Shown here in pieces: positions 6,484 to 31,614 of a stretch of DNA of 31,614 nucleotides. The stretch comes from a virus (Duplodnaviria > Caudoviricetes): positions 1 through 31,614 of IMG/VR virus record IMGVR_UViG_3300032218_000524. One strand, given 5' to 3'. Position 1 is the first letter of the stretch. Each line of letters starts with the position of its first letter. The notes below the pieces were generated by a model. The model did no database searches, had not been told where the DNA came from, and saw nothing but the letters and a program-made list of their open reading frames with translations. Position numbers and translations under genes: made by a program.

Positions 6484-6513
6484 TTGCTTTATTAATTTAA
6501 AGCATTATCTTTG
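6484..6513 (+). promoter_or_regulatory. Bacteroidota-type promoter TTG-N19-TATCTTTG containing palindrome TGCTTTA-N6-TAAAGCA
   Basis: Consensus -33/-7 spacing; inverted repeat at 6485-6504. Confidence 0.6.
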
Positions 6514-6539
6514 TTGAAGTTTAGTCTTTAAAGTGGTTT

Positions 6540-6568
6540 CCTCTCCCCTAAAAAGGAGAGGTTTTTTT
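6540..6568 (+). terminator. Intrinsic terminator
   Basis: CCTCTCC-8nt-GGAGAGG followed by T7. Confidence 0.85.
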
Positions 6569-6606
6569 ATATATACGCATAAGATACCAAACAAAAAAAT
6601 AAACTT

Positions 6607-6647
6607 TTTGCTTAAAATTGTGGATTGTTAAGTAGATTTGTGGAAAC
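6607..6647 (+). promoter_or_regulatory. Early promoter (TAGATTTG 6633-6640) flanked by two TTGTGGA repeats
   Basis: TAnnTTTG box 21 nt before ATG 6662; TTTG at 6607; TTGTGGA at 6618 and 6638. Confidence 0.6.
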
Positions 6648-8027: not shown

Positions 8028-8417
8028 ATGAGGACTGAAGCATTGAGAGCATTAATTAAAAGCCATTATAATCTTATTCATAGATTAGAGGATATACTTG
8101 ATTCAACACCAACAAGAAGGCGAGATTTTGTATGTCCAGAGGATATAATAATTGATGCAGTCAACCAAGAATTCCACACAGATTGTCAGAAACATTCAAG
8201 AGTACTCAAGGTCATCTATGCACGACACGCAGCCTGTTATCTTTTAAAGAAACATACTACAATGATTTGGAAAGATATTGCCTATGCAACTGGTAATTCT
8301 GACCATTCTACTGCTATGGCATCTTATAAAGCCTGTATTAATTTAATGTCTACTAATGATGAATATCTTGGAAAGGTAGAACGAATAATTAAAATTTTGG
8401 AAGAAGCTAAAATTTAA
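8028..8417 (+). CDS. DnaA C-terminal (domain IV)-like HTH DNA-binding protein
   Basis: ARHAACYLLKKHT...DIAYATGNSDHSTAMASYK resembles the DnaA RQxAMYL...IG..FGGRDHTTV signature. Confidence 0.75.
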   Translation: MRTEALRALIKSHYNLIHRLEDILDSTPTRRRDFVCPEDIIIDAVNQEFHTDCQKHSRVLKVIYARHAACYLLKKHTTMIWKDIAYATGNSDHSTAMASYKACINLMSTNDEYLGKVERIIKILEEAKI

Positions 8418-8426
8418 CTATCTTTA
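8396..8426 (+). promoter_or_regulatory. Bacteroidota-type promoter TTTG-N19-TATCTTTA
   Basis: Consensus spacing; one mismatch in the -7 box. Confidence 0.6.
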
Positions 8427-8431
8427 GCAAA

Positions 8432-8520
8432 ATGATGAATGCAGACATCATAATACTAACAATCTTTTTATCCTATTGGGGGAGGTGCTGCATCACCAAC
8501 CTCAATGGGATATTTTTTTT
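8432..8520 (+). ncRNA. Candidate kissing-loop leader RNA/attenuator ending in a terminator-like hairpin
   Basis: Hairpin 1 ATGATG/CATCAT with loop AATGCAGA; hairpin 2 (8469-8512) with loop CTGCAT, then T8; loop sequences ATGCAG and CTGCAT are complementary. Confidence 0.65.
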
Positions 8521-8982
8521 ATGCAAATACATTTAAACGATCTCGAATTAAAATTAATTAAACATCTTGCGATTCAGCGAGAAGAGATTACCAAAGGAAT
8601 AGAAAATTTTAAGAATTACAAGGTAGATGATAAGCCAAGTTTACAAATGGCCTATGAAGGACTATGTTCTGAATTCGCATTTTGCAAATTGATGAATATA
8701 TATCCCGATTTGTCATTACAAAACTATGGACATATTGACTGTTATCATCCAGATTGGGGAACTATTGATGTAAAGTCTACAAAGTTTACTGATGGAAAAC
8801 TTTTAGTTGGCTTATGGAAGAAGAAGTTTCCTGATGCATATGTGTTAATGATAGACAAAAATCCTATTTTCGATTTTGTTGGCTGGATAGAATCTGAAAA
8901 GATGATAGATGATGCTAACATTGAAAGTACAGGAAAGGGAAAAGCATATATAATGCCACAATGGAAACTAAATAAACTATAA
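8521..8982 (+). CDS. Putative PD-(D/E)xK nuclease-like protein
   Basis: G..SE.AF, ID.....TIDVKST motifs; ATG 8521 preferred because the TTG start lies inside the RNA hairpin. Confidence 0.5.
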   Translation: MQIHLNDLELKLIKHLAIQREEITKGIENFKNYKVDDKPSLQMAYEGLCSEFAFCKLMNIYPDLSLQNYGHIDCYHPDWGTIDVKSTKFTDGKLLVGLWKKKFPDAYVLMIDKNPIFDFVGWIESEKMIDDANIESTGKGKAYIMPQWKLNKL

Positions 8983-8983
8983 A

Positions 8984-9706
8984 ATGAATACAGGCCAAAT
9001 AATCAAGTCTAAAACTACGGATAGGTATACTACCATTCCGAATGAGATAATCAAATCTACCCACCTTAAAATGGCTGAGAAAGGATTTTTATGTTATTTG
9101 TTATCACTTCCAGCAGATTGGGTTATATATAAAGTTAATTTGTATAAGAATTTGCCTGATCCAAAGGGAACAATAGATACTTTATTTAAATCTTTACAGG
9201 ACAAAGGATATATCGTTTCTGTTAGGATAGTAAATTCAGAGACTGGGAAGTTTATTGGATGGAATCATATTGTCTATGATGAGCCAACCGACATTGACTT
9301 TTACCGAAGTCGGGATTTACCGATATCGGTTTCCACCGAAGTCGGTGAATCTGCCCCTATACTAAGTACTAATAATACAATACTAAATACTAATATCTTA
9401 GTAAATAATAATACAAAAGAAAAAAAGCCGTTACTTGAAGAAGTTATTAGCTATTTTTTAGAAAAAAACAGTACAGAAGAAAGGGCAAAACAGGCATATG
9501 AATACTACGATGCTGCAAATTGGCACGATAGCAGAGGAAAAATTGTAAAAAATTGGAAACAAAAAATGTTGGCTAATTGGATTAATAACAATAACTTTAC
9601 TAAAACCACAAAAAATGAAACAACTAAACGAACTAATCTCGACTACTACAAAGACGCTTACGAGCAGTCCATCGAATGGGCAAAAAAATGGGATGACCAA
9701 AGATGA
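8984..9706 (+). CDS. Phage replication initiator (N-terminal winged HTH, lambda O-like organisation)
   Basis: YTTIPNEII...L...KGFLCYLLSLP.DW...L.DKGYI; internal iterons; C-terminal EEV..YF...YY..ANW....GK.VKNWK domain. Confidence 0.8.
   Translation: MNTGQIIKSKTTDRYTTIPNEIIKSTHLKMAEKGFLCYLLSLPADWVIYKVNLYKNLPDPKGTIDTLFKSLQDKGYIVSVRIVNSETGKFIGWNHIVYDEPTDIDFYRSRDLPISVSTEVGESAPILSTNNTILNTNILVNNNTKEKKPLLEEVISYFLEKNSTEERAKQAYEYYDAANWHDSRGKIVKNWKQKMLANWINNNNFTKTTKNETTKRTNLDYYKDAYEQSIEWAKKWDDQR
9287..9425. other. Putative origin of replication: four iterons at 16-bp period plus AT-rich tract
   Basis: ACCGAnnTCGG(T/G) at 9303, 9319 and 9335, degenerate copy at 9287; TACTAA at 9360, 9367, 9381 and 9388. 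Confidence 0.8.
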
Positions 9707-30774: not shown

Positions 30775-31614
30775 ATATACAGTTAATACAATTTGCTGAA
30801 GCTAAACAACCGCAATACGCTGAAAAGAAAGGCGAAGGATATATTCAGTATGGGGAAAGAAACGACTATCCTCAATACTTGATTGAACTATTTAACAAGT
30901 CAGCTAAGCATAATGCAATCGTAAAAAGTAAAGTTCACTATATATGTGGTAACGGATGGACTGGATCGAGTGAGCAATTCATTCAGCATATTAACAGAAC
31001 GGAAACCTTAAATGATATTACTACTAAGATATCTTTAGATATTGAATTATTTGGCGGTGCATTTTTAGAAATCATTTGGGGAATGGATGGTAAAGTTAGT
31101 GAGGTGTGGCATTGTGATTATAGCAAGTTTAGAACAAATAAGGATAATAGTCAGTTTTGGTACAAAGAAGATTGGAATGATAAGAAGGAAAAAGCTGAAA
31201 TCTATTTGGCTTTCAATCCACAACTACCAGAAGGTAAGCAGATACTCTATGTAAAGGAATACAGGCCTAATGTAGGCAGTTATGCATTGCCTTCATACTT
31301 TGGGGCATTAAACTATATAGAATCAGATATTGAGGTATCTAAGCACGTTTTAGGTAATGCTAAAACAGGCTTCTCGGCAAGTAAACTTATAACTTTACCT
31401 AATGGAGAGCCAAGTCCTGAAGAACAAAGGGTAGTTCACAATAAGTTTAAGAATACATATACCGGTGCTGATGGTATTAAGTATATGTTAGCATTCGTTA
31501 ATGATGCATCAAGAAAGCCTATTGTAGATGATTTAGGTACTTCAGATTTAACTAAAGAAGATTTTGCAAGGGTAGATAGCTTAATTCAAGTTAACATCTT
31601 TAGTGGTCATCAAA
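30771..31614 (+). CDS. Portal protein, 5' part (continues at base 124)
   Basis: Not in the ORF track because it has no stop in the window. Manual translation MNIQLIQFAEAKQP...YGERNDYPQYLIELFNKSAKHNAIVKSKVHYICGNG. Confidence 0.8.
   Translation, partial: MNIQLIQFAEAKQPQYAEKKGEGYIQYGERNDYPQYLIELFNKSAKHNAIVKSKVHYICGNGWTGSSEQFIQHINRTETLNDITTKISLDIELFGGAFLEIIWGMDGKVSEVWHCDYSKFRTNKDNSQFWYKEDWNDKKEKAEIYLAFNPQLPEGKQILYVKEYRPNVGSYALPSYFGALNYIESDIEVSKHVLGNAKTGFSASKLITLPNGEPSPEEQRVVHNKFKNTYTGADGIKYMLAFVNDASRKPIVDDLGTSDLTKEDFARVDSLIQVNIFSGHQ
31492..31614. repeat. Terminal direct repeat, copy 2
   Basis: Identical to 1-123. Confidence 0.97.

Follow-up and report, generated by a model that had tools for sequence, protein, structure and literature searches.

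A widespread kissing-loop leader RNA before replication genes of uncultured freshwater phages and its proposed role in terminator control

Several described RNAs resemble parts of the leader reported here. In the guanidine-IV riboswitch (GGAM-1/mepA), the loop of a 5' hairpin kisses that of an intrinsic terminator lying beyond a linker, a contact proposed to pull the linker taut so that steric hindrance keeps the outermost pairs of the terminator from closing (PMC7736828, PMC11611296); guanidine is bound by loop nucleotides that do not vary, and exporter genes follow. P4 CI (seqA/seqB/seqC) and Gifsy-1 IsrK are terminated leaders in front of replication or early genes in which the short leader RNA acts on the long form, with an upstream open reading frame in IsrK coupling translation; both use extended antisense pairing, and P4 also involves processing and a lysogenic state (PMC4825925). 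P1/P7 C4 and P4 CI have separate complementary target sites, on both sides of the small RNA or at other genome positions. The rep leader of IncI-alpha ColIb-P9 has loop-initiated long-range pairing ahead of an initiator together with an upstream open reading frame whose stop exposes the pairing partner, and is controlled by a counter-transcribed antisense Inc RNA that acts on translation by way of a pseudoknot (PMC4705826). DNAVirus_187 is a 49-nt motif with 122 sequences (105 freshwater) and a Bacteroidetes host, located within 25 bp upstream of DUF1376/DUF4373 genes (PMC10690425).

The window (the whole stretch of DNA analyzed, 31,614 nt, 33% G+C) is an entire virus record with a direct terminal repeat of 123 nt (1 to 123 and 31492 to 31614), complete by the record's own estimate, and all of its genes with PHROGs or Pfam matches are on the plus strand. 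The leader, on the same strand, begins with hairpin P1 (8432 to 8451), the predicted 5' end of the transcript, which starts with an AUG and has 6 bp and an 8-nt loop, AAUGCAGA (8438 to 8445), containing the kissing hexamer AUGCAG (L1; 8439 to 8444). An A/U-rich linker of 17 nt (8452 to 8468), variable in sequence and held in length, leads to the terminator-like hairpin P2 (8469 to 8512; -24.7 kcal/mol), which has a 13-bp lower stem, a 4-bp upper stem, GU pairs 8474/8507 and 8479/8502, a 2x2 internal loop (GA/AA), and an apical hexamer CUGCAU (L2; 8488 to 8493) that is complementary to L1 and covaries with it. The U-tract of the predicted intrinsic terminator (U8; 8513 to 8520) abuts the main start codon, AUG 8521, and the 3' arm of P2 overlies positions -21 to -9 of that codon. 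The coordinates given in a preliminary description of the sequence all hold, and the exact 6-nt loop complementarity noted there is present in the window and kept in all 31 leaders of the family described below. The UGCA palindrome noted in both loops is also there but is incidental and without a role across the family, as only one of nine loop codes has a palindromic core; palindrome-driven self-dimerization is rejected on that count.

The segment 8425 to 8525 folds at -31.1 kcal/mol (z = -5.09, equalled by none of 200 shuffles), and among 173 predicted hairpin pairs in the window lying 30 to 60 nt apart, only in the leader pair do the loops show complementarity of at least 6 nt. The 10 positions (-10 to -1) before 41 other start codons checked in the window have on average 2.8 U and 5.2 A. 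T>C at 8486 and A>G at 8495, which jointly keep the pair, are both found in contigs from three of the four sequencing runs compared.

Set beside the described systems, the leader seems to work like the guanidine-IV expression platform and sits like the P4 CI and IncI controls, but it lacks a defining feature of each. It shares with guanidine-IV a 5' hairpin loop kissing the loop of a terminator hairpin, here a predicted terminator; unlike in guanidine-IV, its loops vary with no ligand pocket evident, and the genes that follow are initiator-like or unknown-function phage genes. In contrast to the extended pairing of P4 CI and IsrK, it offers a single loop match of 6 to 8 nt, with no third matching site and no integrase found in the window or five relatives, and no consistent target sites of the C4 and CI kind were found in the 11 genomes searched; by analogy with P4 CI and IsrK, any trans-acting RNA would be the terminated leader itself. 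It differs from ColIb-P9 in that the pairing partner is the terminator loop, a conserved antisense promoter is absent, and the upstream stop varies in position. The 49 nt of DNAVirus_187 are close to the 47-nt P2 span of the commonest related subfamilies, but DNAVirus_187 is a single automatic short prediction, is listed with terminator 'no', and is too short for both hairpins. Compared by size, habitat, and gene context, it may represent the terminator portion of a leader related to this one, in which case part of the element may already have been catalogued automatically.

A covariance model from 15 seed leaders, used on loci reached through upstream-gene homologues and pattern scans, found 31 leaders, the window included (27 distinct rows, and 25 distinct sequences from P1 to the AUG), on viral and metagenome contigs. 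The preliminary description had staked its reading on covariation of the loops in homologues, and they do covary: in the 15 aligned seed leaders every pair of the kiss helix is formed (100%), and four of the six have changed on both sides. All 31 leaders have a perfect 6-nt loop match, using nine L1 codes (AUGCAG, UAGCCG, AGGCAG, GUUCAG, UGUCCG, UGUCAG, AGUCAG, UGGCUU, and UAGCAG). That the match is kept through paired mutations in related phages argues that this is a real RNA element, and the covariation indicates that the loop-loop pairing itself is real. For the structure as a whole, observed pairing (98%, versus 35 to 47% in slid controls) was reached by none of 500 shuffles; P1 is 100% paired, with one pair covarying between A-U and U-A, and P2 has two-sided change at 8 of 11 lower pairs and 3 of 4 upper pairs. 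P1 is 18 to 21 nt from an invariant C of P2 in all 25 distinct leaders, and L1 and L2 are 41 to 44 nt apart across all 31 members. The U-rich tail has 5 to 8 U in the first 8 nt past the last G/C pair of P2 (28/28 leaders), and it runs straight into the next AUG, which lies 10 to 12 nt past that pair (28/28). Near-invariant nucleotides are mostly in stems, and the internal loop is purine-rich and semi-conserved. No alternative helix of at least 4 bp is conserved at 85% except one between the AUG and a 3' UAU, and an extended duplex between a P1 arm and upper P2, seen in the fold of the window, fails conservation pair by pair.

The leader is single-copy in 10 of 10 near-complete relatives, and in 26 of the 31 loci it is directly followed by an initiator-like gene. 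These genes are of four sequence types, representatives of which match HTH_36/phrog_19658, phrog_11233, and phrog_4707 (annotated initiators) or, weakly, DUF1376; the DUF1376-type gene, from its position, is probably an initiator too. Initiator type and loop code are unlinked among the family leaders, and the leader stays while the gene downstream changes among the four types, as expected of a cis element. The leader of L049 (603-1103) is near-identical to that of L047 whereas the upstream genes are only about 66% identical, pointing to recombination at the end of the DnaA-domain gene, with a similar case in L244/L250.

Leaders in front of DUF1376-type genes extend the design beyond the family. 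The best 80 of 348 confirmed viral loci, of which one is too short and one has no box, reduce to 40 distinct leaders in about six related groups, some of them family members, and in 39 of these 40 a stem-loop matches the apical loop of the 3' hairpin over at least 6 nt, compared with 63 of 8,000 shuffled controls showing the design. The covariance model scores 15 of the best 80 loci strongly and 14 weakly. Further codes are used (AUGGUAC, AUGCGAC, GUCGUAU, GUAGGAU, GUGGUAG, and GGGCAAU) on stems unrelated in sequence, and the kissing design recurs in several sequence-unrelated subfamilies. The loops are 38 to 43 nt apart in 17 hand-picked leaders of this wider set and 38 to 44 nt apart overall. 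In the GUAGGAU subfamily (L288, L296, L300, and relatives), the leader is found about 90 nt before position 901, and 13 of 15 distinct leaders have in P1 a start codon followed at once by a stop, AUG-UAG; the upstream gene in L288, L294, and L296 is other than the DnaA-domain gene.

In the window, the gene ahead of the leader (8028 to 8417, plus strand) codes for a 129-aa protein consisting of a DnaA domain-IV helix-turn-helix only (Pfam Bac_DnaA_C, E 6e-11), and its stop codon is directly 5' of the promoter box. The family leaders each follow a DnaA-domain-IV gene; the leader is right behind such a gene at all 21 close homologue loci (L066 to L086) and absent behind it at all six distant ones (L087 to L092). 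The preliminary description had the leader gating initiator genes, and it does precede them, but the first gene after it (8521 to 8982, plus strand; phrog_18407, weak DUF5843) codes for a 153-aa protein of unknown function, and the predicted replication initiator (phrog_4707 and phrog_270 'replication initiation protein') occupies 8984 to 9706 on the same strand. Genes of the 153-aa type come after the leader in 4 of the 31 loci, and the leader is missing at all eight distant homologue loci of this gene (0/8). Other long structured leaders, of two kinds (L037:446-615, L040, and L042; L039:2331-2500 and L043), precede distant homologues of the 153-aa gene and are unrelated to the kissing-loop leader.

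A promoter had also been proposed, and a predicted one is found, although it is a variant of the Bacteroidota -7 box and not a sigma-70 promoter. The box, TATCTTTA (8419 to 8426, plus strand), is a TAnnTTTG variant of the sigma-A type with a predicted start at about 8431-8432, and a TTTG at 8396 to 8399 on the same strand could be a -33 element, agreeing with the consensus for Bacteroidota-type promoters (PMC7366714). A TAnnTT[TC][GA] box lies 4 to 5 nt 5' of P1 in 28 of 28 leaders examined; as the Bacteroidota box spans -12 to -5 (PMC9723704), P1 would begin at +1 or +2. Leaderless mRNAs are rare in Bacteroidota, at 5.5% and about 3.7% (PMC9723704, PMC7366714), which weighs against the reading of the leader set out below. 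The boxes suggest a Bacteroidota host, and many of the sequencing runs sharing words with the window carry a freshwater or aquatic label; no RNA runs are listed among them. No conserved antisense promoter is seen at the 28 leader loci, where a strict minus-strand TAnnTTTG occurs in three, at unrelated places, and looser minus-strand boxes are not conserved.

The P1 AUG opens a predicted short upstream frame of 34 codons (8432 to 8536, plus strand) that passes through the linker and P2. Thirty of the 31 family leaders have AUG at the start of P1, 9 to 19 nt after the stop of the DnaA-domain gene, and in all 24 distinct AUG-bearing leaders the frame gets to the 5' arm of P2. Stop triplets in the three frames number 1/23/18, or 1/9/11 after clustering; with 1 of 21 stop triplets in the upstream frame over 12 clusters, which are not fully independent, the binomial P is about 0.002 (one or fewer), and it is 0.0002 for zero. 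Counted from the main AUG, its stop falls anywhere between -47 and +61 and occurs in each of the three registers, and the frame varies in length; at 15 to 50 codons and with variable sequence, a conserved leader peptide is ruled out. Nor is the frame general, as the large GUAGGAU subfamily has nothing more than AUG-UAG, 3 of 40 leaders from the best 80 of 348 wider-set loci have no P1 AUG, and in L280 and L292/L293 the frame of the first AUG stops before P2. In L079 (2890-2998) an ACG replaces the P1 AUG and the loop code supplies an AUG whose frame, judged by eye, enters P2; L280 to L282 likewise have an ACG at the P1 start and an AUG from the loop code, the L280 frame stopping just before P2. 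In L080 (2899-3010) and L082 the stop of the upstream frame overlaps the initiator start codon as AUGA, and in L262 the frame is open for 129 codons.

The leader likely decides whether transcription runs into the replication genes. The preliminary description offered a cis attenuator or an RNA of about 90 nt, and the anatomy fits an attenuator before initiator genes, termination being predicted. Transcription would start at the P1 AUG or one base before it, as the conserved box suggests, and L1 would pair with L2 once L2 emerges about 40 nt later. The linker seems too short to span P1, the kiss, and a zipped P2 easily, and the kiss would thus compete with the finished terminator: formed during synthesis, it would hold the lower terminator stem open, and polymerase would read on with no ligand involved; were L1 not paired in time, P2 would zip, transcription would stop at the U-tract, and an RNA of about 88 nt would be released. 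By default we read this balance in cis as a kinetic competition. In the window's subfamily only, ribosomes from the P1 AUG would enter P2 and free the start of the next gene from it, which would couple translation of that gene to the upstream frame; as P2 overlies -21 to -9 of the main start, such entry would help initiation there.

A helical step rises about 2.8 A and a stretched nucleotide covers about 6 A. With the kiss and full P2 together, the linker of 14 to 19 nt would span 28 to 33 helical steps (one outlier, L313) and by our own estimate would be close to full extension. Hairpins P2 of 47 to 48 nt go with linkers of 14 to 16 nt and those of 39 to 41 nt with linkers of 17 to 19 nt, a trend opposite to that needed if the kiss and full P2 coexist. 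Part-transcript folding, under a nested model in which ViennaRNA scores no true kiss, has the upper stem of P2 giving way to L1:L2 pairing in 19 of 25 cases. Together with the guanidine-IV likeness, the geometry and folding lead us to read the kiss as the read-through state, so that on balance the kiss probably blocks completion of the terminator and lets transcription continue into the replication genes; this ON direction, drawn from analogy and rough geometry, is put forward with somewhat more belief than doubt. The 6-bp kiss duplex (-6.2) is much weaker than full P2 (-24.7), and any block must therefore be kinetic or limited to the lowest pairs.

An RNA-based substitute for a repressor switch, which had been floated for this leader, gains no support. 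No tyrosine integrase is found in the window (PHROGs, Pfam) or in any of the five near-complete relatives searched (5/5), no CI/Cro pair flanks the leader, and a search of 11 genomes for a second site carrying the loop code gave no consistent intergenic partner; these absences, with that of an antisense promoter, leave the idea unsupported. In pairwise whole-genome alignments (for example, G002-G005, 28.5 kb, 90% identity), only the two loops change in step. With no other code-bearing RNA found, the leader itself is the sole candidate partner for action in trans, and we consider as unlikely, though worth retaining, a feedback in which the terminated RNA of about 88 nt, its own kiss blocked by full P2, captures L1 of nascent leaders with its free L2, in the manner of P4 CI RNA or short IsrK. 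Termination would then be forced as genome copies accumulate, and the loop code would be a type-specific exclusion signal. This would be an input added to the kiss model, and it would make of the leader a protein-free and ligand-free circuit that counts itself, an attenuator in cis with its terminated form as trans repressor, whose loop code of 6 to 7 nt would set type-specific copy control or exclude related phages, which is rather improbable. Nine codes among 31 leaders, most heterologous code pairs reaching at most 4 of 6 Watson-Crick pairs, are consistent with it, as is a contrast between L067/L068 and L073, which agree in all 42 linker and lower-stem columns and differ at three of six kiss pairs, but that is the one close-pair contrast in support. 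In a check for diversifying selection of the code, the tree gives 7, 6, and 5 changes for three kiss columns, much as for third codon positions (mean 6.15), yet lower-stem pairs also reach 6 changes, and fast code change is thus not special; the feedback is kept on these rates as a rival with rather low probability. The loop match, moreover, ends within 6 to 8 nt, and with no integrase found in the window or five relatives there is no clear immune state to keep.

The kiss might instead act in the opposite direction, clamping P1 over its AUG and compacting a terminated or untranslatable state until a ribosome on P1, leaderless or re-initiating past the DnaA-domain gene, breaks the kiss and melts P2, which would turn the operon on. 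Pairing of the P1 AUG in the full-length fold (unpaired probability 0.01 to 0.12), the frame open into P2 in 24 of 24 leaders, the upstream gene stop 9 to 19 nt before the AUG, and the P1 AUG in 37 of 40 wider-set leaders (best 80 of 348 loci) all agree with such a lock; however, at -19 to -25 kcal/mol the terminator can do without a kiss, the linker seems too short for the kiss plus full P2, some leaders have no AUG, and its position in stem or loop differs between subfamilies, making this improbable, more so than the feedback in trans. Stabilization of the kiss by a ligand or by the upstream DnaA-domain protein is very improbable: the guanidine-IV layout, the semi-conserved purine-rich internal loop, and the adjacent DnaA-domain gene suggest it, but the near-invariant nucleotides are mostly stem, with no loop pocket, the loops are the variable part, the design is kept in sequence-unrelated subfamilies, and L288, L294, and L296 have no DnaA-domain gene upstream. 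The phi29 pRNA is an oligomerizing structural RNA, and the leader could by that model be a small structural RNA that oligomerizes through L1-L2 contacts, its place before the initiator being incidental. Its own predicted promoter and terminator and its two complementary loops would suit this role, which we nevertheless hold to be the least credible of these alternatives, since in all 28 leaders examined the U-tract leads directly into an AUG 10 to 12 nt past the last G/C pair, and since from one subfamily to another the design goes with initiator-type genes.

Rfam gave no gathering-score match, to the models of the C4 and CI RNAs or to any other, for the window or 10 related loci (local best E 1.3, unrelated families), in agreement with the earlier statement that no known family could be assigned, and titles and abstract starts, with few subscription papers covered, yielded no published description of the leader; the available portion of PMC5737381 has no such motif. 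An exact-loop pattern scan of viral contigs returned 36 stretches, none with the structure, which are chance matches, and a looser viral pattern gave 22 stretches, 8 on known contigs and 14 others, of which 3 are new members. A single DnaA-domain protein query found no viral locus, whereas alignment queries did; GenBank phages gave no meaningful DNA match and one weak protein match. Of 120 loci in prokaryote genomes (loose pattern, 2 of 64 parts), the 100 that were scored all failed (best E 0.61), and the covariance model found no leader in five single Bacteroidota genomes; none was found either in 151 genomes of the family of G011, with 25 candidates scored per genome and no positive control, a result from which absence in prophages does not follow.

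The leader is thus a real and widespread RNA element without an Rfam family, with a proposed function in kissing-loop control of a terminator. Its kiss-versus-terminator architecture, riboswitch-like and apparently ligand-free, would be a standard replication-gene leader in a large group of uncultured freshwater phages. With its natural code variants as ready-made compensatory mutants, it lets one ask directly whether steric gating of an intrinsic terminator takes nothing more than a kissing loop. It bears also on how phages without an evident repressor time or cap initiator synthesis, and should the short RNA work in trans, these codes could serve as a compact, partly orthogonal set of RNA regulators for Bacteroidota.

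Elsewhere in the window, the initiator gene contains iteron-like repeats with an ACCGA core (9287 to 9345, three copies with 16-nt spacing), followed by A/T-rich repeats (9359 to 9423). By analogy with lambda O, the ACCGA repeats and the A/T-rich stretch are likely a replication origin. At 6506 to 6570, a strict TAnnTTTG box has a hairpin with a U-tract about 35 nt beyond it, which may mark a short RNA or no more than a terminator and shows no specific complementarity to the leader; the early operon may begin from another box, at 6633.
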